A stretch of DNA of 64,000 bases from an uncultured Campylobacterales bacterium (GCA_964520575.1 CAZFNK010000008.1:2458-66457), one strand, 5' to 3'. Counted from the stretch's first letter, positions 11,312 through 34,168 are shown. Numbers and translations: made by a program. Notes: generated by a model from the sequence alone, not told the origin.

Positions 11312-11905
11312 TTATTTTTTCTTTGCCTTGGATTTGGCTTTTGAAGCTTTTTTCTTGGCCTTGGAAGCCTTCTTTTTTGCAGTATCGGTTTTGGCTTTTG
11401 CTTTTTTCTTAGCTTTGGAAGCTTTCTTTTTGGCGGTATTAGTTTTATCTTTTGCTTTTTTCTTGGCTTTGGCCTTTTTAAGATCCTCTTTTGCTTTGGT
11501 GAGTTTCTTTTTCTTTTTGTTTACCTTCTTTTTGGCCTTTTCTGCTTTTGCTTTGGCTGCTTTAGTGGGCTCTTTTTTGGCTTTTTCGGTAGCTTTTTTG
11601 GCCTTTTTCTTAGCCTTTTTGAGATCCATTTTTTTGCTTTTTACCATTCGTTTCTTTTGTTTTACTTCGCCGACTTTTACATCTTTGTAAACATTATCAG
11701 CGATCTCCTCGCCTATACCTTCTACCTCCATTAGATCCTGTCTGTTACGGATCTTGTGAGTACGGCGGTATTTCATGATGGCGGCAGCTTTTACAGGTCC
11801 GATACCCTTGATGCTCATTAGCTCCTCTTTTGTTGCGGTCTGCGGGTTGAGCGCATATAGAGTACCGACAGCAAATGCGATCATTACAAGCAGTAGTTTT
11901 TTCAT
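11312..11905 (-). CDS. comEA: ComEA-family helix-hairpin-helix DNA-binding protein with Lys/Ala-rich repeat tail
   Basis: Signal peptide MKKLLLVMIAFAVGTLYA. Two HhH motifs (IKGIGPVKAAAI, VEGIGEEIADNV). The C-terminal ~130 aa are almost only K/A/T/S. Confidence 0.75.
   Translation of the reverse strand: MKKLLLVMIAFAVGTLYALNPQTATKEELMSIKGIGPVKAAAIMKYRRTHKIRNRQDLMEVEGIGEEIADNVYKDVKVGEVKQKKRMVKSKKMDLKKAKKKAKKATEKAKKEPTKAAKAKAEKAKKKVNKKKKKLTKAKEDLKKAKAKKKAKDKTNTAKKKASKAKKKAKAKTDTAKKKASKAKKKASKAKSKAKKK
11355..11462 (-). repeat. 2 x 54-bp imperfect tandem repeat inside the comEA tail
   Basis: Unit 11355-11408 versus 11409-11462. They encode KKAK(D/A)KT(N/D)TAKKKASKAK twice. Confidence 0.8.
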
Positions 11906-20073: not shown

Positions 20074-20148
20074 TGGGGTATCGCCAAGCGGTAAGGCAAC
20101 TGGTTTTGGTCCAGTCATTCGGGGGTTCGAATCCCTCTACCCCATCCA
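20074..20148 (+). tRNA. tRNA-Gln (anticodon UUG)
   Basis: Hand-folded cloverleaf: acceptor TGGGGTA/TACCCCA, anticodon stem ACTGG/CCAGT, loop TTTTGGT, T-loop TTCGAAT, encoded CCA. Close to E. coli tRNA-Gln. Confidence 0.9.
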
Positions 20149-20205
20149 TTTGGATTCAGCTGTACTATATTTATTTCAGCTACAATCGACTTCTAAATAT
20201 ACGGA

Positions 20206-20282
<77 letters not shown>

Positions 20283-20342: not shown

Positions 20343-21077
20343 TTAGTGAGCACTCACTGCTTTGAGCGGATCTGGATGTCTGTTTTTCTTTTTTGCACTA
20401 CTTGATGTTTTACTTTTAGCCAATTTAGCAGTCTGAAGATGATCTTTGGGATTTGTGCTGATTGCTTTTAGTGGATTTAGGTGCCTTGGCTTATGCTCAG
20501 GGGGTGTCTGGGCAGCACCAGTGGGCTTCTGATGCATCTTTGGGTTGGTGTTGATTATTCTCGAGGCATGCATCATTCCTGCACCTATTGATCGGCGCAG
20601 AATTTCAGGACTTGTTGCAAAAGCAGGTAGAGTTACCGGCGGTGAGTGATCAGGAGGAGTACCGACTATATCGACTCGCGTCCACTTCTGCGCCCAGGCG
20701 AACATCTTCTGAGCAAAACCGTCCTTCATCCGTATGCAGCCGTGCGAAGCAGGATAATCAGGAGTGGGACCCAGGTGCATAGCTATGCCGTCACGGGTGA
20801 TACGAAGCATATAGTGCATCTTGGCGCCGCCATTTGGCTGCGGCCATAGATTTGACACATGGTCTATATCTTTTTCTCTGACATAAAATGATCCCGTAGG
20901 TGTACGGCGTCCAGGTTTGCCTGTAGAGACTCTGCCGTAGAATTTGACCTTGCCGTCCTGATAGGCTATAGCGACCTGATGGGTTAGATCTACAAGAATA
21001 TATTTGGAAGCAAACAGATAAGACATGCTCCCAAACAGAAACAGAAAAATAAAAACAAATCCTGGTTTTTTGATCAT
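20343..21077 (-). CDS. L,D-transpeptidase (YkuD domain) with basic C-terminal tail
   Basis: HYMLRITRDGIAMHLGPTPDYPASHGCIRM catalytic motif and an N-terminal TM/signal segment. ATG 21077 avoids overlap with the upstream paralogue; the track start is 21101. Confidence 0.85.
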   Translation of the reverse strand: MIKKPGFVFIFLFLFGSMSYLFASKYILVDLTHQVAIAYQDGKVKFYGRVSTGKPGRRTPTGSFYVREKDIDHVSNLWPQPNGGAKMHYMLRITRDGIAMHLGPTPDYPASHGCIRMKDGFAQKMFAWAQKWTRVDIVGTPPDHSPPVTLPAFATSPEILRRSIGAGMMHASRIINTNPKMHQKPTGAAQTPPEHKPRHLNPLKAISTNPKDHLQTAKLAKSKTSSSAKKKNRHPDPLKAVSAH

Positions 21078-21081
21078 AATG

Positions 21082-21783
21082 CTACCGCAATGCCACTTCA
21101 CTCATAGCTTTGAGAGGATCTCTGTGTCTAATGCGTCGAGAACGTTTGCGATGAGTGTTTCTTCTATGCACTTTTCTGCTGCTTCGTACTGTTCTGCTTC
21201 TTTTTGCCTTATTTCGGATGGAGCGGCGAGTGATAGAATGACCCATGAATTCAGCCAATATATCTGTAGCTGTCGCATTGTAAGTGCGGTGTGTACTCCT
21301 TCTGGATGCCCGTCTTGGGATACTCCTTGTAGCATACGTGGATTTATAAGAAGTTCTGTTGACGTAACTTGGAGGTGATCCCACTATGCTGACAGGAGTA
21401 CCTACACTTGCCCATCTGTACATGCGTTGCGCAAAACCGTTTTGGAGTCTGATACAGCCGTGAGAGGCCGGATAGCTGGGTACATACCCAAGATGCATGG
21501 CTATTCCGCTTGAAGTTAGGCGCAGCATATAGTGCATCTTGGCTCCGCCGTTGGGCTCCGGATACTTGCTTGAGACATGATCTATATCTTTCTCTAATAC
21601 CCTGAATCTTCCTGTTGGAGTACGGTGACCGGGCTTGCCTGTAGAGACATTGCCGCAAAATACAGCTCTGCCTCCCTCATATGCACAGGCTCTTTGTTTG
21701 GATAGATCGATCACCACTTTTTTGGCGGACATGGGCGTTGCAGCTAGGACTCCAAGCGCAAGCAAAGCAAATATTTTTTTCAT
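21082..21783 (-). CDS. L,D-transpeptidase (YkuD domain) with Arg/Ser-rich C-terminal tail
   Basis: Signal peptide MKKIFALLALGVLAATPMSA. HYMLRLTSSGIAMHLGYVPSYPASHGCIRL catalytic motif. Confidence 0.85.
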   Translation of the reverse strand: MKKIFALLALGVLAATPMSAKKVVIDLSKQRACAYEGGRAVFCGNVSTGKPGHRTPTGRFRVLEKDIDHVSSKYPEPNGGAKMHYMLRLTSSGIAMHLGYVPSYPASHGCIRLQNGFAQRMYRWASVGTPVSIVGSPPSYVNRTSYKSTYATRSIPRRASRRSTHRTYNATATDILAEFMGHSITRRSIRNKAKRSRTVRSSRKVHRRNTHRKRSRRIRHRDPLKAMSEVALR

Positions 21784-26900: not shown

Positions 26901-27377
26901 TCAGCAATCATTATAGGGGTGCTGTTTTGCTAACGTCTTGCTTTTCCACATAGTACGTAAGAAACCGTCGATTGGACTGTCTTCTTCTTCTGGATTGCAG
27001 TCAATAGTGATACTGTCTGGGTTACTTTGATGGTTTTCAATGTCATCAAATATATTGCATATAAGCTTACCTTCTTTCCCACCCTCTTTCCATATCATAT
27101 CTATTCCTGCATCCGTCAAGGCGGTGATGGTTGCCTTTATACCATCTGACCGTATAGAAAAATCCTCATCCTCGTATAGGATCTGAGTATAATTGTTGTC
27201 AGAAAATTCGATTGATACATAAGAAGGGTTTTGGCAGGTATCTTTTTGATACCAGACATGCTTAGTCGCTACAGCCTTGGGATCAAACGCTTCTTCGGCA
27301 GTCGTACTGTTGCAGCCGATGATAGATACCATCATCGCTATCCCGCCCAATAATACAGCTTGTGTTTTCATTTTCAT
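26901..27377 (-). CDS. hypothetical lipoprotein
   Basis: Signal peptide with lipobox (MVSIIGC). An acidic, Cys-containing 158-aa protein with no family recognised. It is the last gene downstream of the toxin-cassette array on the same strand. Confidence 0.6.
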   Translation of the reverse strand: MKMKTQAVLLGGIAMMVSIIGCNSTTAEEAFDPKAVATKHVWYQKDTCQNPSYVSIEFSDNNYTQILYEDEDFSIRSDGIKATITALTDAGIDMIWKEGGKEGKLICNIFDDIENHQSNPDSITIDCNPEEEDSPIDGFLRTMWKSKTLAKQHPYNDC

Positions 27378-27488: not shown

Positions 27489-27553
27489 GTGGTCGCCTCC
27501 CCTATAGGATTGGCTCCTTCCATCCCCATCTCGGCGATCATCGCTCCGATTGG
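27489..27553 (-). repeat. pre-toxin module remnant R6 (5' third only, AEMGMEG variant)
   Basis: Encodes GAMIAEMGMEGANPIGEAT, then diverges and stops at 27449-27451. DNA is near-identical to 28860-28912. Confidence 0.8.
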
Positions 27554-27571
27554 ATTTTGTTCACATTTATA

Positions 27572-27580
27572 TGCTATAAT
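27572..27580 (+). promoter_or_regulatory. extended -10 element (TGcTATAAT) 6 nt before an ATG (possible leaderless mRNA)
   Basis: TGCTATAAT at 27572-27580 and ATG at 27587. There is no SD in between. Confidence 0.4.
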
Positions 27581-27586
27581 GAGCAC

Positions 27587-27814
27587 ATGGGTAGGATAGA
27601 TAAGGAAAAAGAAGAGATCGGCTGGATGAAGTTTTGGATTGGGGTGAGCGTTGCCTCAATCATGGGTCTGATCAGCTGGTTTGTCAATCATTACGCAGAT
27701 GCAAACAATGTCATTTTGATTATGGATTTGCTGGCGATTGTTGTTTTGGCAGTTTTTATCGTCATGCTCAATCGCACTGCATTACGCAAAATAAAAGAAT
27801 TGGAGAACTTATGA
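27587..27814 (+). CDS. small two-TM membrane protein (opposite strand to toxin array)
   Basis: 75 aa from the ATG (the track gives a TTG start at 27557). TMs WMKFWIGVSVASIMGLISWFV and VILIMDLLAIVVLAVFIVML, then an amphipathic C-terminus. Confidence 0.5.
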   Translation: MGRIDKEKEEIGWMKFWIGVSVASIMGLISWFVNHYADANNVILIMDLLAIVVLAVFIVMLNRTALRKIKELENL

Positions 27815-27903
27815 TTACTGCCATGTATGTTGTGATTTTGGTCGCATTTGTTGGAGCTTTGAGCTACAGCATGATGATGACACTTCGAAGCTTTGATCAG
27901 TAA
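27811..27903 (+). CDS. 30-aa hydrophobic peptide, translationally coupled (ATGA) to the preceding ORF
   Basis: MITAMYVVILVAFVGALSYSMMMTLRSFDQ. Its ATG overlaps the TGA of the upstream ORF at 27811-27814. Confidence 0.3.
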   Translation: MITAMYVVILVAFVGALSYSMMMTLRSFDQ

Positions 27904-27911
27904 TCTCTTTA

Positions 27912-28016
27912 GCCCGAGGCCAGCCCGCCAAAGAGCGCGGCGATGGTGGCCTCTCCTATAGGATTGGCTCCCTGGAGCCCCATCCCGGCGATCATGGCTC
28001 CGCTGAGTTTGGAAGC
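27912..28016 (-). repeat. pre-toxin module remnant R5 (5' two-thirds, AGMGLQG variant, premature stop)
   Basis: Encodes ASKLSGAMIAGMGLQGANPIGEATIAALFGGLASG then TAA. It begins 6 nt after the stop of the preceding immunity gene, as at cassette 3. Confidence 0.85.
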
Positions 28017-28022
28017 TGTTTA

Positions 28023-28343
28023 TTAGCTCTTGAACCATTCAGTGCAGCAGAGCAACCAATAAAAAAAAGCAGGTGCAGCAATTGTGATAATTCGTATAGC
28101 TTTTTTGTTTTTTTCATTAGCAACAATGTCAAAGTTTGGCAAGTCATATACCCACTCAAAACCCCCCTCAACAATTGCAGCAAAAACAACGACGCGCACA
28201 AGAATGTTTTGTGAAAAAAAGACATCGTAATAAAACAATAAATGGGCAAATGCGCTTAAAAATATTGATGCAAGTATGTATTTAATGTTTTGCCCTGCAA
28301 TACGATTCTTTTGCCTCCAGTATTTTATGTGAAATCCACTCAT
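28023..28343 (-). CDS. putative immunity protein of cassette 4 (polytopic membrane protein)
   Basis: 106 aa with about 3 TM segments. ATGA overlap with the cassette-4 toxin stop (28340-28343). AT-rich, no family recognised. Confidence 0.6.
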   Translation of the reverse strand: MSGFHIKYWRQKNRIAGQNIKYILASIFLSAFAHLLFYYDVFFSQNILVRVVVFAAIVEGGFEWVYDLPNFDIVANEKNKKAIRIITIAAPAFFYWLLCCTEWFKS

Positions 28344-28948
28344 TTGATTACCTGATACACACCATATGCCAAATCTAACGTAGTGGGTAGCCAGTGGTAT
28401 TTTGACAACGACATTGCACCTACGCCGAGGGCTAATCCAGTCCTATCATTTTGAAGTGCATCCACACCAATTGCGGCAATACCGAATCTTACCGCCATAC
28501 CTGGAGGAGAAACTGTAGATGCGACCGATAACCCCAACCCAACAACATCACCGCTTTTTTCATTCATCCTTTCTAAGTCCAACACCCTCTCATATGCTTT
28601 TTCATAAGAGATTTTATGTTGCGATCTTCGTCTCATACTTGCTGCAACGATTTTCTGCGTTCGCAACTCTCTTGCTCTTTGTTGCGTGAGTCGATAATAT
28701 TTGTGACCGTTCTTGTATGTGACGGTACTATTTCTCTGTTGATAATCTGCCATTGCATCATTATACAAATAAACCACCATCGCCGTCAAGGCACCCTCGG
28801 CGAAATCCCCGCCCGAGGCCGTCGAGGCCATCCCGCCAAAGAGCGCGGCGATGGTGGCCTCTCCTATAGGATTGACTCCTTCCATCCCCATCTCGGCGAT
28901 CATGGCTCCGGAGAGCTTTTCATTTCCTGCAATCTTTTCTCCCAACAA
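28340..28948 (-). CDS. polymorphic-toxin cassette 4: pre-toxin module + Gly-zipper-rich C-terminal domain
   Basis: KLSGAMIAEMGMEGVNPIGEATIAALFGGMASTASGGDFAEGALTAMVVYLYND followed by a unique 130 aa. The track start is TTG; the first in-frame ATG (28903) lies inside the module. Confidence 0.65.
   Translation of the reverse strand: MLGEKIAGNEKLSGAMIAEMGMEGVNPIGEATIAALFGGMASTASGGDFAEGALTAMVVYLYNDAMADYQQRNSTVTYKNGHKYYRLTQQRARELRTQKIVAASMRRRSQHKISYEKAYERVLDLERMNEKSGDVVGLGLSVASTVSPPGMAVRFGIAAIGVDALQNDRTGLALGVGAMSLSKYHWLPTTLDLAYGVYQVIK
28757..28917 (-). repeat. pre-toxin module copy, cassette 4
   Basis: DNA near-identical to 29677-29845 and 31871-32037 in its 3' part. The 5' part is the AEMGMEG variant. 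Confidence 0.9.
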
Positions 28949-29214
28949 GGTACCTCTTCCACTCTCAAAATAAGAGCAATAAATAATTCAAACAAGATCC
29001 ACAAAATAATTGCAATAATCAGTGCTACCAATAAACTACCAAAAAAGTTTGGAACAATAAAAAATAAAAGCAAAATTATTGAAATCTCCAAACCAGAAAT
29101 TATCGAAAAAAGAAAACGAAAAATTTTTTTTGGACGATAACATTTTTTACTGACAGGATCACGGAATATTTTCCTTCTTCTCAAAAGAATGTACCCATTA
29201 ATACCATACATCAT
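28900..29214 (-). CDS. putative immunity protein of cassette 3 (small membrane protein)
   Basis: 104 aa with 2-3 TM segments. It starts 9 nt after the cassette-3 toxin stop, with AAAGAG upstream. Its last codons run into the next module out of frame. Confidence 0.55.
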   Translation of the reverse strand: MMYGINGYILLRRRKIFRDPVSKKCYRPKKIFRFLFSIISGLEISIILLLFFIVPNFFGSLLVALIIAIILWILFELFIALILRVEEVPCWEKRLQEMKSSPEP

Positions 29215-29223
29215 GATTACTCT

Positions 29224-29823
29224 TTAGTGCAAAGGATTTATTTCATTGTGAATAATATCGGCTGCAGTTCCGGCAGGCTTAATACTTAAAGAGGTAGATG
29301 TATACAAACCTCCTAATATATTGTCGATAAAGCCAATTCCTTTCCCTGTCAAATAGGCGCCAATATAATAGTTTGGCCTTTTGAGCACATCATTACCAAG
29401 TTTTTCTAAAATATCCATCTTGTGGTATTTTAATCCATACATCAAAAGCTTATATTCGGCTTTTGCTTCCATTTTGTACCATCCAATTCTATTGCCGTGT
29501 TGCCAATCTCTGAATCCGGTTGATCTACCCAAATAATCACCATAAGCATACAATGCTTTCGGAGCAGATACAACACCTTCGGCCAAATCTTTTCCACCTT
29601 TTGCGGCATTTTTCAACAACGAGCCTTTGCGCACCCTTCCAAACGCAGCTTTTTCCGCCATCATGTCAGACCAAGCCTCATTATACAAATAAACCACCAT
29701 CGCCGTCAAGGCACCCTCGGCAAAATCCCCGCCAGAGGCCGCAGAGGCCATCCCGCCAAAGAGCGCGGCGATGGTGGCCTCTCCTATAGGATTGGCTCCC
29801 TGGAGCCCCATCCCGGCGATCAT
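29224..29823 (-). CDS. polymorphic-toxin cassette 3: pre-toxin module + unique C-terminal domain
   Basis: MIAGMGLQGANPIGEATIAALFGGMASAASGGDFAEGALTAMVVYLYNE followed by a unique 145 aa. The ATG is the in-module Met; module homology extends upstream to 29845. Confidence 0.65.
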   Translation of the reverse strand: MIAGMGLQGANPIGEATIAALFGGMASAASGGDFAEGALTAMVVYLYNEAWSDMMAEKAAFGRVRKGSLLKNAAKGGKDLAEGVVSAPKALYAYGDYLGRSTGFRDWQHGNRIGWYKMEAKAEYKLLMYGLKYHKMDILEKLGNDVLKRPNYYIGAYLTGKGIGFIDNILGGLYTSTSLSIKPAGTAADIIHNEINPLH

Positions 29824-29845
29824 GGCGCCGCTGAGCTTGGAAGCA
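29677..29845 (-). repeat. pre-toxin module copy, cassette 3 (full length)
   Basis: Starts 6 nt after the stop codon at 29851-29853 of the preceding immunity gene and ends at the GAG (E) of LYNE. Confidence 0.9.
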
Positions 29846-29850
29846 AATTG

Positions 29851-30369
29851 TTAAATATGACTTCTCAAAAAAGCTTTTAAAATTTGTTCTTCTGCTGTAT
29901 TACAATGCACAAAACACGAAAAATATTGTGCATCGTGGTCAGGCACAATTGTTATTGCACCATCATACACAGTAGTCTCACCATTGTATTTATCAAACAC
30001 TTGATCTTTCAATCCCATAATCATGGACATCACATGCTCTTCTTCCGGTTCTGTCACATAAAACAGCATTGATTCTAATATTTCATCGATATGATTAATG
30101 TCAAGCTTCTGATTAAAATATCGAGAAGTCTCTTGAGAATTTCTGCCAAAAAATTTTACGACAGAAAACCTTTCTATCTTCATTTTGTTCGCAACAATGC
30201 TTGTGTAACCATTTTCATAAAAAAAATCAATCAATTCCTTGGCTGTTTTAACTATTTGCTTTTTAATCTCGGTATTGTTATCAGAAAGCGTTGCATAAAT
30301 TATTTCACCATATTCTATTGTCAAAATACATTCTTGGGCGTCAACATTGAAGCAAAAATTTTTTAGCAT
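29851..30369 (-). CDS. putative immunity protein of cassette 2 (cytosolic, acidic)
   Basis: 172 aa from ATG 30369, with no TM. TAATG overlap with the toxin stop and a GGAGG RBS inside the toxin 3' end. Confidence 0.6.
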   Translation of the reverse strand: MLKNFCFNVDAQECILTIEYGEIIYATLSDNNTEIKKQIVKTAKELIDFFYENGYTSIVANKMKIERFSVVKFFGRNSQETSRYFNQKLDINHIDEILESMLFYVTEPEEEHVMSMIMGLKDQVFDKYNGETTVYDGAITIVPDHDAQYFSCFVHCNTAEEQILKAFLRSHI

Positions 30370-30905
30370 TACCAACCTCCTTCATATGGTCTATGGTACT
30401 GCATACTTTTTTGAGAAAGTCCTCGATGATAGTGCCAGTATTTTATATTTTTCCCATATGGCAAATTAAACTTTTTTGATAGCCTTGGAGAAAAGCCATG
30501 CTTTTCAATCCGCAAAACTGGCTGACCTGTTGACTTTAATCTTATCTGCAAAGGCTTGGCTTTTCCAAGAAATTCAAAAGCCAGTTTTCCACCTATAGCC
30601 GCTTCACCAACCATGAACTCAGCTTGATAAATAGGACCTTTTGCATACTCTGGGGCACCATCCAATGCCGCCATGGCACCATTGTATCCTCTTTTGACTG
30701 CCTTTCCTGCATCACGAGCGATACGACCGCTTTTGATCTCGCCATACAGTTTTTGCATAGATTGACCAAGCGTAAGCTCATTATACAAATAAACCACCAT
30801 CGCCGTCAAGGCACCCTCGGCGAAATCTCCTCCAGAGGCCGCTGAGGCCATCCCGCCAAAGAGCGCGGCGATGGTGGCTATTATCCAAGTTGGCAATAAT
30901 CGCAA
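30369..30905 (-). CDS. polymorphic-toxin cassette 2: 5'-truncated pre-toxin module + unique basic C-terminal domain
   Basis: ATIAALFGGMASAASGGDFAEGALTAMVVYLYNE followed by a unique 135 aa ending ...KYWHYHRGLSQKSMQYHRPYEGGW. Only a TTG start; the first in-frame ATG is 30851, inside the module. Confidence 0.6.
   Translation of the reverse strand: MRLLPTWIIATIAALFGGMASAASGGDFAEGALTAMVVYLYNELTLGQSMQKLYGEIKSGRIARDAGKAVKRGYNGAMAALDGAPEYAKGPIYQAEFMVGEAAIGGKLAFEFLGKAKPLQIRLKSTGQPVLRIEKHGFSPRLSKKFNLPYGKNIKYWHYHRGLSQKSMQYHRPYEGGW
30777..30878 (-). repeat. pre-toxin module copy, cassette 2 (3' part only)
   Basis: Homology begins at gccaccatcgcc (ATIA). The ASKLSGAMIAGMGLQGANPIGE part is missing. Confidence 0.9.
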
Positions 30906-30932
30906 AGAAACAGCAAAAGAAAATATTGTTTT

Positions 30933-31421
30933 TTATTTTTTCCTCATCACTTTATTTTGACTGTGGTCATCAAACTCTAAATATGCATGAATAAAGTCTT
31001 TCTCTTGTTTGGATAGATTTTTGTATTCACCGGTATATTTAATCTTCTCAATATATTTAGTTAGCTCAATTTTATCTGCTTCTATTGCATCGGAAAAGTC
31101 TTGTGCAAAATATGCAAAAGGATATTGTTCATAATCCTGTAAGAATTTTACATAATAATAAAATCTCTCTTCAACCGACAACTCTTTAATGCAAGGAAAT
31201 ACAGCTATCATCGAATCCATGGCATAATCATCATAAAAGAGTTTTATATATTTGGATATGGCTATCCATCTGTAATAGCTTGCAAGCCTACTTTTCTTCC
31301 CTATCTCTTTCTCTATCTGCTTGCCTTGATAATATACATCGGTAACAACATAAAGTATGCCCGCAAAAAATGCAACAAATACCAAGCTCAAAAAAAGTAC
31401 TGTTCTTGCATATTTTTTCAT
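30933..31421 (-). CDS. putative immunity protein of cassette 1 (N-terminally membrane-anchored)
   Basis: 162 aa with a single N-terminal TM (VLFLSLVFVAFFAGILYVV). ATGA overlap with the cassette-1 toxin stop (31418-31421). Confidence 0.6.
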   Translation of the reverse strand: MKKYARTVLFLSLVFVAFFAGILYVVTDVYYQGKQIEKEIGKKSRLASYYRWIAISKYIKLFYDDYAMDSMIAVFPCIKELSVEERFYYYVKFLQDYEQYPFAYFAQDFSDAIEADKIELTKYIEKIKYTGEYKNLSKQEKDFIHAYLEFDDHSQNKVMRKK

Positions 31422-32104
31422 TTTATTTCCAATGTTCCATAATAGGTAATGCTATTTTGCCAGTTATACCAATGTGGACCTTGATAAAATTTTATTTGCT
31501 TTGTTTTAGTGTTAAGCAAAAGACTCCTGACTGCTTGCCACTGTTTAAGATTATTTTTAATCGTTACACATCCAAAACTCAAAGCACCGTTATATAATCT
31601 TATTCCCGATCTTCCATTATGGTAATCATCAATTCTGCCATCGTTATATAACAATGAAAACCAACCTGGATGCTTTTGGGGATTTACATTATCTGTTATC
31701 AAGTATTTCCCTGATGGAGCAGCCTTCTGCCTGACACCACCATCGGTCACAGCAACTCGGCCATGTGCATCAACCTTTCCACCCGTAAAAGCATCTACGA
31801 CTACATGTTCACCCGTGTCATTGTCAGCCATATAAAGTTTCTCTTCTTTCGTGTCAAGTACCGCACTGACCTCATTATACAAATAAACCACCATCGCCGT
31901 CAAGGCACCCTCAGCAAAATCTCCTCCAGATGCCGCTGAGGCCATCCCGCCAAAGAGCGCGGCAATGGTGGCCTCTCCTATAGGATTGGCTCCCTGGAGC
32001 CCCATCCCGGCGATCATGGCTCCGCTGAGTTTGGAGGCGATGGCGGAGATGAAGCCGGTCTTGAAATCTCCGCCTCTAAGAACCGTGATGAGCCCCTGGG
32101 TCAT
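31418..32104 (-). CDS. polymorphic-toxin cassette 1: longer N-terminal stub + pre-toxin module + L,D-transpeptidase-like (DUF2778/Tlde1-like) C-terminal domain
   Basis: ...GGDFKTGFISAIASKLSGAMIAGMGLQGANPIGEATIAALFGGMASAASGGDFAEGALTAMVVYLYNE, then a CT containing GKYLITD, HPGWFSLL and GRSGIRLYNGALSFGCVTI. The frame stays open upstream of the ATG to 32227. Confidence 0.65.
   Translation of the reverse strand: MTQGLITVLRGGDFKTGFISAIASKLSGAMIAGMGLQGANPIGEATIAALFGGMASAASGGDFAEGALTAMVVYLYNEVSAVLDTKEEKLYMADNDTGEHVVVDAFTGGKVDAHGRVAVTDGGVRQKAAPSGKYLITDNVNPQKHPGWFSLLYNDGRIDDYHNGRSGIRLYNGALSFGCVTIKNNLKQWQAVRSLLLNTKTKQIKFYQGPHWYNWQNSITYYGTLEIK
31871..32037 (-). repeat. pre-toxin module copy, cassette 1 (full length)
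   Basis: Near-identical to 29677-29845. Upstream of it, unique GC-rich coding-like sequence continues to about 32190. Confidence 0.9.
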
Positions 32105-32236
32105 TCCGTGGCTCAGAGCCAGCCCGAAGTTCCAGCCATGCGTCCCGAAGGCCTCGGGCAGTCCGCTGGCAAACGAAGAATTGATCGAATAAGCAAGATG
32201 TTGCAGTATAATTTTATAATAATTTATCTAATGATA

Positions 32237-32710
32237 TTATATCCTGCTTTGACTCTTCAATGCAATTGACAGTTTCTCTAATAAAGTCTTATCCAATTTT
32301 TTTCTTATTTTTTCAAATCTTGAGGTGGCTTTCTCATACTCCCGATTAGTAAAAAAAATCTTAATATTTTGTTTGCGGATAAATTTGTCAAAATTATTTT
32401 TGTTATATGATGAATACACAGTATTGCTTTTCTTATCGATGACAATATAGCTTAACGCTTTATCAAAAAAAATTTTTTCGTCAGGGCAATTAAAATATCT
32501 TAAAGGATACCTTATAGCAATAATGTAATTATCATTATATTTTACATCAAGGATATAGCTTAAATGTAATTTTTTATTTGCGAACGATCTTATTGCATCA
32601 TAGCCACTATAGTATAAAAAGTAATCTCCCTTCCCAAGTTTGCCCTCATTGTAATACCAATAATGCAATGAGGCAAACGCTAAGATAATAACAATAAATA
32701 TTTTCTTCAT
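32237..32710 (-). CDS. orphan immunity-like secreted/membrane-anchored protein
   Basis: 157 aa, N-terminal hydrophobic segment MKKIFIVIILAFASL, very AT-rich, no family recognised. Its ATG lies 2 bp from the IS end. Confidence 0.5.
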   Translation of the reverse strand: MKKIFIVIILAFASLHYWYYNEGKLGKGDYFLYYSGYDAIRSFANKKLHLSYILDVKYNDNYIIAIRYPLRYFNCPDEKIFFDKALSYIVIDKKSNTVYSSYNKNNFDKFIRKQNIKIFFTNREYEKATSRFEKIRKKLDKTLLEKLSIALKSQSRI

Positions 32711-32712
32711 AA

Positions 32713-32750
32713 GGTAATCCCCCCATTTCCCAACCCCACTAAAAGTAGAA
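32713..32750. repeat. IS terminal inverted repeat (orfB-proximal end)
   Basis: GGTAATCCCCCCATTTCCCAACCCCACTAAAAGTAGAA. The terminal GGTAATCCC and subterminal AAAAGTAGAA match the rc of the other end. Confidence 0.75.
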
Positions 32751-33578
32751 TTAGGCTACAAGAGCCAACTTCTGGGCAGGAGTGATCCCGCCTATTGCCG
32801 TATTGGGTCGTTCGTTATTATACACCCAAAGCCATTTGGTTGCAAACTCTCTCACCTCCTCGATAGAATTAAATATGTATTGATTGAGCCATTCATACCG
32901 TACAGTACGGTTATATCTTTCGATATAAGCATTCTGCTGCGGTTTGCCAGGTTGAATATATTGCAAGACTATATTTTGCTTTGTTGCCCAATTTTGCAAT
33001 GCTGCCGAAATATACTCAGGACCGTTATCACACCGTATGATCTTTGGCTTTCCTCTCCATTCAATGATTCTCTCTAAAGCTCTTATCACTCTTTGTGAAG
33101 GCAAAGAGAAATCAGCTTCAATCTCCAGTCCTTCACGGTTATAATCATCATTCACATTAAAGAGCCTGAAGCTTCTGCCGTCACCGAGATTATCATGCAT
33201 AAAATCCATAGACCATACTTCATTAGGCATAGAAGACACACTAAGAGGTTCCGGTGTTTCGCGTTTGATACGCTTTTTAGGCTTGATGCGCATATTCAGT
33301 TCCGGCTCTTTGTATATCCTGTACACCCTTTTATGATTCCATCCATATCCTTTGACATTACGAAGATATAAAAAACAGAGTCCAAAGCCCCAGTTTTTTT
33401 GATTATGTGTCAGACGTATGAGCCAATCTGCTATCAGTTCATTTTCTTCATTGAGTTTGGATTCATATCTATAACAATACTCACTGATCTTAAAAGCTTT
33501 ACAGGCTAAACGGATCGTAATCTGTTTTTCTTCAACCGCTTTGACAGCAATCTTTTTACGCAAAGATGGCTTTACCAC
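32751..33578 (-). CDS. IS3-family transposase OrfB (DDE integrase core)
   Basis: An rve-type core (WSMDFMHD..., CDNGPEYIS..., [16 protein letters not shown]). It has no own ATG and is entered by a -1 frameshift from orfA. Confidence 0.9.
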
Positions 33579-33838
33579 TTTTTTTCGAGTGCCTCCTGTA
33601 CTATTTCTGCTTTAAGACGCTCTTCTGCGTACATCTTTTTTAAACGACGGTTCTCCTCTTCAAGCTCTTTAAGTTTTTTCATCAAAGAGGCATCCATCCC
33701 TCCATATTTACTACGCCAGTTATAAAAAGTAGCACTGCTTATACCGTGCTCTCTACAAAGCTCTGGTACCGGTATACCACTCTCTGCCTGTTTTAAAATT
33801 GCCAATATCTGCGTATCGCTAAATCGCGACTTCTTCAT
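33572..33838 (-). CDS. IS3-family transposase OrfA (HTH)
   Basis: [44 protein letters not shown] plus a leucine-zipper-like end. GGAG RBS. Confidence 0.9.
33578..33585 (-). promoter_or_regulatory. programmed -1 ribosomal frameshift site (A AAA AAG)
   Basis: Minus-strand GAAAAAAAGTGG at the end of orfA. Slipping -1 reads ...[14 protein letters not shown], which is the OrfB N-terminus. Confidence 0.75.
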
Positions 33839-33870
33839 AGAAAATCTCCTTACAATATTTTACTGGAATT

Positions 33871-33910
33871 TTCTACTTTTGGGAAGATTGGGTTTTTGGG
33901 AGGGATTACC
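33871..33910. repeat. IS terminal inverted repeat (orfA-proximal end)
   Basis: The rc reads GGTAATCCCTCCCAAAAACCCAATCTTCCCAAAAGTAGAA. Confidence 0.75.
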
Positions 33911-34014: not shown

Positions 34015-34105
34015 CTCAATTCTCTCGGGGTGCCGCAAGGCTGAGAAGATGATCCGTCTACCCGTCGAACTTGAACCAGACAACACTGGCGTAAGGAAGA
34101 GATAC
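34015..34105 (+). promoter_or_regulatory. TPP (THI-box) riboswitch
   Basis: CTCGGGGTGCCGCAAGGCTGAGA...ACCCGTCGAACTTGAACCAGACAACACTGGCGTAAGGAAGAG matches the conserved GGGGUGC / GCUGAGA / ACCC..GAAC.UGA.C..G.UAA..C.GGCG.AGGGA core. It sits in the thiB leader. A possible SD-sequestering helix pairs CTATCC (34131-34136) with GGATAG (34160-34165). Confidence 0.82.
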
Positions 34106-34168
34106 TGCAACAATCTATCAGTACTTCTGCCTATCCCAGTTTTACAAACTAAAACACAAGGATAGAAA

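Follow-up and report, generated by a model that had tools for sequence, protein, structure and literature searches.

A 64,000-nt stretch of DNA from an uncultured Campylobacterales bacterium (GCA_964520575.1, CAZFNK010000008.1:2458-66457; the whole of this stretch is referred to below as the window) holds, on its minus strand between positions 27,489 and 32,710, what is best read as an orphan rhs-CT/rhsI array, made up of four complete toxin/immunity cassettes, two decayed cassettes and a lone immunity-like gene lying upstream. This reading, to which a probability of about 0.78 is assigned, was reached because the module shared by the cassettes corresponds to the pre-toxin end of Rhs proteins, because the variable toxin tips and the small genes following them are inherited together, and because loci comprising a main rhs gene and orphan copies are found elsewhere.

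Layout of the array

The four minus-strand open reading frames (ORFs) on which an earlier note on this DNA had focused, namely 31418-32104, 30369-30905, 29224-29823 and 28340-28948 (cassettes 1 to 4, in that order), are all present in the ORF listing, and both this listing and DNA alignment confirm that they contain a common module and diverge past an LYN[E/D] motif. The presence of two further, tipless copies of the module downstream was likewise borne out by a repeat finder and by alignment. Specifically, the repeat finder delineated direct-repeat families of 169 nt (five copies) and 59 nt (five copies) that jointly span the four cassettes and the two remnants, with the remnant copies appearing at 27944-28002 and 27490-27548. 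The module copies are as follows.

31871..32180, minus strand: pre-toxin module of cassette 1, the longest copy, ~102 aa (SFASGLPEAF...VVYLYNE), 58% GC, 86% identical to residues 145-241 of the related protein P0002
30777..30878, minus strand: module of cassette 2, the shortest copy, 34 aa (ATIAALFGG...VVYLYNE), from translation and DNA alignment
29677..29845, minus strand: module of cassette 3, ~56 aa, from translation and DNA alignment
28757..28920, minus strand: module of cassette 4, ~55 aa, from translation and DNA alignment
27912..28016, minus strand: remnant 5, a tipless module copy with a stop after ...FGGLASG, reading ...LSGAMIAGMGLQGANPIGEATIAALFGGLASG and then the stop, from repeats and alignment
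27489..27553, minus strand: remnant 6, part of a module (...GAMIAEMGMEGANPIGEAT) with unrelated sequence (TLLSG...) after it, from repeats and alignment

When the six copies were aligned as DNA, the final 44 nt of the module, CCGAGGGTGCCTTGACGGCGATGGTGGTTTATTTGTATAATGA, proved to be identical in all four cassettes, and similarity among these was seen to end precisely past the N[E/D] codon. At its 5' end, the module is cut variably: the copy in cassette 1 keeps ~310 nt and that in cassette 2 ~100 nt, and cassettes 3 and 4 each keep ~165 nt. The modules are 89-95% identical to one another. No mutual similarity was detected by BLASTP (E≤1) among the C-terminal tips that follow (CT1-CT4).

Each tip is closely followed by a small gene. 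The couplings listed in the earlier note can all be read directly in the sequence, namely ATGA overlaps between toxin and immunity ORFs at 31418-31421 (cassette 1) and 28340-28343 (cassette 4), a TAATG junction at 30367-30371 in cassette 2 and a 9-nt gap at 29215-29223 in cassette 3. In cassette 2, the ATG of the small gene (I2) at 30369 is preceded, six nt before, by AAGGAGG; the ORF listing instead gives an upstream TTG at 30375. As for the toxin ORFs, those of cassettes 2 and 4 start with TTG, a Shine-Dalgarno-like sequence precedes the start in cassette 4 only, and the frame of cassette 1 remains open for 41 codons above its ATG, of which ~24 still correspond to conserved module. The GC content, 44% for the window, is 54-62% in the modules, falls to 39-43% in the tips that follow and drops further, to 29-36%, in the immunity genes, a gradient that fits the classic pattern of rhs elements, in which a GC-rich core is joined to an AT-rich tip.

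The pre-toxin module and its Rhs carriers

A word-indexed search with cassette 1 matched seven proteins. P0002 includes a match to NCBIfam Rhs_assc_core (59 bits; cutoff 32.5) ending ...NPLKYVDPDGH, followed by an 80-aa Gly-rich hydrophobic linker and then by the module at 86% identity. In P0003, the end of an Rhs core (...DLFGL) is joined to a tip 41% identical to CT1.

A profile of the module was searched with HMMER against 1.84 billion protein representatives (E≤1e-3), resulting in matches to 1,314 protein clusters. Each of the eight carriers longer than 2,000 aa contains RHS repeats, and seven of these also include SpvB and FG-GAP domains, with the TcdB middle domain being present in several; the exception, P0085, combines FG-GAP and RHS_repeat. 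Five of the carriers that are shorter or partial likewise contain RHS_repeat. Each of the 16 long carriers scanned contains at least one of RHS repeats, a YD repeat and an Rhs core domain, and there, the only families detected at E≤1e-3 were RHS, SpvB, FG-GAP, TcdB_mid, Ig-like, YkuD and DUF637. In P0002, L015 and L016, the module is preceded, at a distance of 80-100 aa, by the Rhs-associated core (TIGR03696, Rhs_assc_core), which scores 59-61 bits. The ORF of L016 (32% GC), the closest long relative, spans at least 1,025 aa and includes a YD repeat, an Rhs core at residues 594-682 and a module of the (W)LYND type at residues 780-867; the architecture of L015 is similar.

Across 152 hits, the module ends with ...GGxFxxGAxxAAxV(H/Y/W)L(F/Y)N[D/E], after which there are typically 120-175 residues, and 46 of these hits also possess an Rhs core-end motif, at a distance of 63-132 aa upstream. 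A metagenome scan with the module returned 79 loci, and six-frame analysis of giant metagenome ORFs (1,787-2,694 aa) placed the module 130-190 aa from the C-terminus. When RHS carriers are considered overall, this same position holds for proteins of 1,787-3,613 aa, with one full-length carrier being a protein of a tubeworm (Escarpia) endosymbiont. The proposal of the earlier note that the locus represents an orphan polymorphic-toxin array is hence supported and can be narrowed to Rhs; contrary to the refuting case set out in this note, in which the module never occurs at the end of a large exoprotein, it does so in these giant RHS carriers. Moreover, at L047, L065 and L078, orphan copies come after a main rhs gene, and L023, L024, L026, L027 and L076 are arrays of three to four orphans only.

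The module thus constitutes the last 34-102 aa of a helical, Gly/Ala-rich pre-toxin region of ~185 aa that follows the Rhs-associated core, with a sharp (Y/W/H)L(Y/F)N[D/E] boundary beyond which a variable toxin of 120-175 aa begins. The domain composition of the carriers supports a parent class of the Rhs type containing SpvB and FG-GAP (TcdB/TcaC-like), rather than CdiA or MafB. In an earlier survey, the combination of SpvB, a propeller and RHS was described as the TcdB/TcaC-type class of polymorphic toxins, and DUF637 as a pre-toxin domain of the type V secretion system (T5SS; PMC3482391).

No Pfam model covers the module. DUF637 matched cassette 1 with 14.7 bits and P0097 with 20.5 bits, both below the gathering threshold of 26.6, and the former match involves the last 70 profile positions, corresponding to the C-terminal half of the domain. 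Of 36 module relatives, seven matched DUF637 at E≤1e-3, the best at 1.4e-5. This indicates that the module is a distant relative of DUF637 and not a member of that family. An AlphaFold model of the P0002 core end, linker and module, generated from a 36-sequence alignment (mean predicted local distance difference test score [pLDDT] 64), includes six helices, of which two belong to the linker and four to the module; a Foldseek search of the PDB with this model yielded no match below E 2.4. In reference genomes, no relative was found with a tight alignment of the module, and a seven-sequence alignment recovered two loci only, both from metagenome-assembled genomes (MAGs) and neither from the same species.

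The last codons of the module (A-L-T ... Y-N) also contain a promoter-like TTGACG-18 nt-TATAAT sequence, found at four positions.

31874-31903, minus strand: promoter-like site of cassette 1
30780-30809, minus strand: promoter-like site of cassette 2
29680-29709, minus strand: promoter-like site of cassette 3
28760-28789, minus strand: promoter-like site of cassette 4

All four copies match the sigma-70-type consensus at 11 of 12 positions, a -35/-10 consensus that Campylobacterota promoters may not follow. The TATAAT element corresponds to the Tyr-Asn codons of LYN[E/D], and the site is seen in relatives of the (Y/W)LYN type and not in those of the HLFN type, amounting to 11 of 59 distinct module ends. 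In Salmonella, an internal rhs promoter drives expression of the tip and the immunity gene (PMC7043789). Conceivably, the site described here could similarly transcribe each tip and its immunity gene.

Toxin tips, candidate immunity genes and genomic setting

The tips and the candidate immunity genes of the array are as follows.

31418..31870, minus strand: CT1, a Tlde1/L,D-transpeptidase-like tip of 150 aa (Pfam Tlde1_dom, hhalign, similarity to P0003)
30369..30776, minus strand: CT2, a basic tip of 135 aa with no detectable relative
29224..29676, minus strand: CT3, a tip of 150 aa with the conserved motif LYxFGDYLGRxxGxRDxQ and homologues in P0006 (L001) and L004
28340..28756, minus strand: CT4, a tip of 138 aa with a Gly-rich hydrophobic C-terminal half and similarity to P0035
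32237..32710, minus strand: I0, a lone AT-rich gene of 157 aa (DUF3997) with a hydrophobic N-terminus, a candidate immunity gene with no toxin partner
30933..31421, minus strand: I1, candidate immunity gene of 162 aa with an N-terminal transmembrane anchor (hydrophobic residues 4-31), overlapping CT1 at ATGA
29851..30369, minus strand: I2, candidate immunity gene of 172 aa from the ATG at 30369, predicted as cytosolic and acidic from start context and composition
28900..29214, minus strand: I3, candidate immunity gene of 104 aa with two transmembrane segments (hydrophobic residues 30-89)
28023..28343, minus strand: I4, candidate immunity gene of 106 aa with ~3 transmembrane segments, overlapping CT4 at ATGA and with a homologue at L006

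CT1 scored 27.7 bits against Pfam Tlde1_dom (PF10908), below the cutoff of 30.1, and was aligned with YkuD proteins by hhalign with a probability of 90% (E 1.7e-6), across the GC active-site strand. The tentative family call previously made for cassette 1 probably holds at the level of fold homology to Tlde1 and L,D-transpeptidases, but the motif histidines are missing. The motif residues of Tlde1a are H121, H129 and C131 (PMC9638812). In CT1, the corresponding stretch reads RLYNGALSFGC, with the Cys retained and with Tyr and Phe at the two motif His positions, so that the catalytic motif H-x(n)-(S/T)HGC is not found. The related tip of P0003 retains the first motif His. Because both motif histidines have been replaced, CT1 may be inactive or mechanistically divergent. 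The SHGCIR motif of L,D-transpeptidases does appear elsewhere in the window, in two tandem genes at 20343-21783 (minus strand) and 20074-20279, with long Lys/Arg/His-rich C-terminal tails; this pair adjoins two tRNA genes and served as comparison sequences for CT1.

For CT2, CT3 and CT4, no match was found in Pfam, NCBIfam or PDB sequences, and none of the four toxin ORFs significantly matched a PDB sequence (best E 0.41 and E 2.1). The suggestion that the toxin repertoire may be largely undescribed therefore holds at the level of sequence searches of Pfam, NCBIfam and the PDB. In a search of 5.8 billion proteins, CT2 matched only itself; the complete ORF of cassette 2 contains 24 Lys and Arg and 12 Asp and Glu residues. 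CT3 has homologues in P0006 (L001) and at L004, a locus from a Campylobacteraceae MAG, and CT4 shares 42.5% identity with the P0035 tip across 120 aa. The AlphaFold model of cassette 3, based on a two-sequence alignment, was unusable (mean pLDDT 35). More generally, in only two of 36 relatives with complete tips does the tip match any Pfam family. A Met codon is found within the first 2-14 residues of each of the four tips.

Linked recurrence elsewhere was observed for three of the four toxin/immunity pairs, with sequence comparison of the small genes indicating clear homology for I4, modest homology for I1 and weak homology in the case of I3. I4 is 36% identical (E 2e-21) to a 105-aa gene that overlaps the P0035 stop at the metagenome locus L006, a two-cassette orphan array in which the P0035 module is poorly conserved in sequence relative to the modules of the window. 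For I1, the counterpart lies downstream of P0003 and was matched by BLASTP over 153 aa with E 2e-6. At both loci with a CT3 homologue (L001 and L004), the tip is followed by a membrane protein of 110-111 aa, with direct BLASTP comparison of I3 and the L001 protein giving only E 0.022. For the CT2/I2 pair, no recurrence was found, CT2 having no relatives among the 5.8 billion proteins.

Given the predicted locations of the immunity proteins, likely sites of toxin action can be proposed. CT1, if still active, likely acts on periplasmic peptidoglycan, and CT3 and CT4 likely act on the membrane or envelope. For CT2, the target is likely cytosolic and could be nucleic acid, with I2 containing no transmembrane segment and 27 Asp and Glu relative to 16 Lys and Arg residues. 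The 3' end of I3 extends into module 4.

I0 matches Pfam DUF3997 with 28.8 bits (cutoff 25), has a GC content of 27%, lies ~20 nt from the end of an insertion sequence (IS) and is likely a stray immunity gene. PADLOC identified no defence system, apart from one weak and unconvincing match for I0. Directly past the last remnant, at 26901-27377 (minus strand), lies a 158-aa lipoprotein-like ORF with a signal peptide ending ...IIGC and no family match, which could be one more stranded immunity gene. Between the remnants, on the strand opposite to that of the array (27557-27903, plus strand), are two small ORFs, one of 85 aa with hydrophobic segments and a second of ~30 aa, hydrophobic and with GGAGAA upstream; neither has a convincing family match.

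The upstream border of the array is formed by the IS.

32729..33892, minus strand: IS3-family insertion sequence, with orfA at 33572-33838 and orfB at 32751-33578

The 22-nt terminal inverted repeats of this element are at 32729-32750 and 33871-33892, and HTH_Tnp_1 and rve domains were assigned to its ORFs in the identical Logan contigs L010 and L011. Three further read sets show this same junction between the IS and I0; the Logan contigs that stem from this organism are broken at the repeat. Past the IS, on the other strand, lies the thiB operon, and downstream of the array are the lipoprotein gene and valS. ValS is 79-81% identical to Sulfurovum proteins, and the gene order and content of the window are otherwise those of housekeeping DNA. 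A thiamine pyrophosphate (TPP) riboswitch (34016-34114, plus strand; 67 bits) is found immediately past the IS3 element, before the operon encoding the thiB-type thiamine ATP-binding cassette (ABC) transporter.

The JGI contig that carries the CT3 homologue P0006 (L001) also includes, at 1898-2317, an IS3 transposase fragment nearly identical to positions 32751-33578 of the window, which hints that the same IS may travel with these cassettes. In a Gammaproteobacteria MAG (L005, 8341-13280), two different transposase genes flank an orphan cassette that is frameshifted and belongs to this module family, and orphans of this family are often IS-associated. Elsewhere in the window, 11312-11905 (minus strand) encodes a 197-aa protein with a signal peptide, a short helix-hairpin-helix-like N-terminus and an extremely Lys/Ala-rich repetitive tail.

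Proposed role, alternative explanations and comparison with known systems

In the parent protein, the aspartyl autoprotease of the core would, on the basis of established Rhs knowledge, cut at DPxG, and the pre-toxin region and tip would be carried in the RHS cocoon and delivered into a neighbouring cell. Since the cassettes considered here lack the delivery part, they would not be deployed as they stand and would instead represent silent spare warheads. The GC-rich module (up to ~310 nt, with 44 nt of full identity) could provide the homology needed to recombine with a full-length rhs gene elsewhere, at its 3' end, such that this gene would acquire a new tip and the accompanying immunity gene, with the differing 5' truncation points being the scars of successive displacements. 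In the meantime, the stored immunity genes, perhaps transcribed from the promoter-like TTGACG-18-TATAAT sequence in the last module codons, would offer protection against relatives deploying these tips.

Several observations weigh against the locus being such an array. Within the 64-kb window, there is no full-length rhs gene, no ORF with RHS features and no secretion-system gene, a result confined to the window that does not establish absence from the genome. An IS3 element adjoins the array, so the parent gene may be lost. Two copies are plainly decayed, most of the toxin ORFs have no credible translation start, and the motif histidines of CT1 have been replaced. Finally, the promoter-like site follows from conserved residues and codon choice and is absent from most of the wider family.

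The main alternative, considered rather improbable, is that the locus is a decaying relic, in which the parent rhs gene was lost, perhaps upon IS3-mediated rearrangement, and the cassettes are drifting into pseudogenes that provide neither reservoir nor protection. The position of the IS3 element directly upstream, the lack of an rhs gene in the window, the two truncated remnants, the lost CT1 histidines and the weak toxin starts would all be consistent with such decay, as would the fact that P0002, a close relative, is itself a stop-interrupted fragment. At the same time, all four tips (135-150 codons) and the five small genes (104-174 codons) remain open in stop-prone, AT-rich DNA, and translational coupling has been kept, as reflected in two ATGA overlaps, one TAATG junction and a strong Shine-Dalgarno sequence before I2. 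The 89-95% identity of the modules, moreover, suggests recent origin or ongoing gene conversion.

Even less probable is the possibility that the cassettes behave as modules resembling type II toxin-antitoxin systems, expressed from internal promoters and starts so as to stabilise the locus or modulate growth, with no intercellular delivery being involved. The near-consensus promoter-like element ending every module and the Met codon early in each tip would allow for this, and there is experimental precedent in the main and orphan rhs-CT of Salmonella (PMC7043789). However, of the four immunity candidates, three are either anchored to the membrane or integral to it, as would fit envelope-acting toxins delivered from outside and not toxin-antitoxin pairs of the cytosol. 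The promoter-like site, furthermore, can be explained by codon usage and is not conserved in the family, and the -35/-10 consensus for which the sequence was scanned may not hold for Campylobacterota. Expression in the manner of a toxin-antitoxin module is, in any case, compatible with an orphan rhs-CT/rhsI array and does not exclude it.

The LYN boundary also resembles the Burkholderia (E/Q)LYN motif, and the cassettes might be thought of as orphan cdiA-CT/cdiI units of a two-partner secretion (TPS; contact-dependent inhibition) system, with the module being the DUF637/pre-toxin end of CdiA and LYN[E/D] an ELYN/VENN-like boundary. The weak similarity to the C-terminal half of DUF637, described above for cassette 1 and seven of the 36 relatives, and the listing of DUF637 as a T5SS pre-toxin domain (PMC3482391) point in the same direction. 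This assignment is, however, contradicted by the RHS architecture of the carriers and was rejected as highly improbable; all 16 long carriers contain RHS, YD or Rhs core domains and no TPS or haemagglutinin-repeat domain at E≤1e-3, an Rhs-associated core lies directly upstream of the module in the closest relatives, and the window contains no cdiB-like gene or gene for a large outer-membrane transporter. Nor was a match to DUF1020, as would be sought for MafB, found in any cassette or carrier scanned.

Equally remote is the idea that independent small proteins, such as bacteriocins handled by a peptidase-ABC exporter, use the shared segment as a leader for export or as an anchor in the membrane, as the Gly/Ala-rich segment at the N-terminus of the ORFs as called and the shortness of many database relatives might suggest; this was rejected because the module is internal to giant proteins and its 5' end is cut differently in each copy, which a leader would not tolerate, and starts are TTG or have no Shine-Dalgarno sequence, the window contains no exporter gene and contigs of 1-4 kb are the source of many of the short relatives.

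Returning to the orphan rhs-CT/rhsI array, a broader proposal can be put forward as speculation that is more apt to fail than to hold, namely that the uncurated pre-toxin/translocation domain (at least 1,300 clusters) is widespread and marks a distinct Rhs subclass, frequent in communities of low-GC Campylobacterota and of marine chemosynthetic settings, in which TcB/TcC-like SpvB-propeller-RHS cocoons are directed against bacteria. The cargo would comprise the ~185-aa helical carrier and a swappable tip, most tips, including CT2-CT4, would adopt new folds, and the boundary codons would double as a promoter keeping stored immunity genes expressed.

The concept of the orphan rhs-CT array is well established, such that a specialist would not be surprised by the present example. 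The novelty is modest and lies in an uncurated, DUF637-like pre-toxin module with an LYN/HLFN boundary, in three unclassified tips and in the Sulfurovum host. The array would extend Rhs-type polymorphic-toxin arsenals with stored warheads and antidotes to Sulfurovum-like Campylobacterota; a literature search found no report linking Sulfurovum with polymorphic toxins. The three tips assigned to no family, each with a candidate immunity partner, offer ready pairs for finding new antibacterial activities, and the uncurated module, with its clean boundary motif, could be used to mine thousands more tips from metagenomes.

The closest counterparts are the orphan rhs-CT/rhsI units of enterobacteria (E. 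coli, Salmonella, Dickeya and Serratia). There, as here, a 5' segment homologous to the end of full-length rhs is followed, past a sharp boundary, by unrelated tips, each with a linked immunity gene, in tandem units; the conserved part is GC-rich and the tip and immunity gene AT-rich, and an internal promoter may be present (PMC7043789). The two differ, however, in that the enterobacterial boundary is the PxxxxDPxGL of the core, whereas here, a pre-toxin region of ~185 aa separates DPxG from the tip and recombination would occur at LYN[D/E] or HLFN[D/E]. The parents also differ, being of the SpvB/FG-GAP/RHS (TcdB/TcaC) type here (PMC3482391) and PAAR/VgrG-linked T6SS (type VI secretion system) Rhs proteins in enterobacteria. 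Lastly, the present array belongs to a Sulfurovum-like member of the Campylobacterota and, unlike enterobacterial arrays, has no adjacent main gene.

The module also recalls the CdiA pre-toxin region (DUF637/PT637 with VENN/ELYN), both comprising a Gly/Ala-rich conserved segment and a short, N-containing boundary motif, and cdiA-CT/cdiI orphans likewise form tandem arrays of variable tips and immunity genes. The carriers here are, nonetheless, RHS cocoons and not TPS/FHA filaments, with DUF637 scoring 14.7 bits relative to a gathering threshold of 26.6. At the level of a single cassette, CT1 shows probable fold-level similarity to Tlde1, the Salmonella T6SS L,D-carboxypeptidase/transpeptidase effector paired with the periplasmic immunity protein Tldi1, and the N-terminal membrane anchor of I1 is consistent with periplasmic action. 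Unlike Tlde1, CT1 is fused to an Rhs pre-toxin module rather than being stand-alone T6SS cargo, presents Tyr and Phe at the equivalents of H121 and H129, and has a sub-gathering Pfam score and no sequence match to a PDB chain.

Finally, the full-length carriers, in combining SpvB, TcdB_mid, an FG-GAP propeller and RHS repeats, resemble the TcB-TcC cocoons of Tc toxins. YD-repeat toxin genes are reported to be abundant in symbionts of vent mussels (PMC4612132), and the carrier from the Escarpia tubeworm endosymbiont recalls such 'toxin-related genes' of deep-sea symbionts. Unlike Tc toxins and these symbiont genes, the present cassettes include immunity genes, suggesting that they are aimed at bacteria and not at animals.

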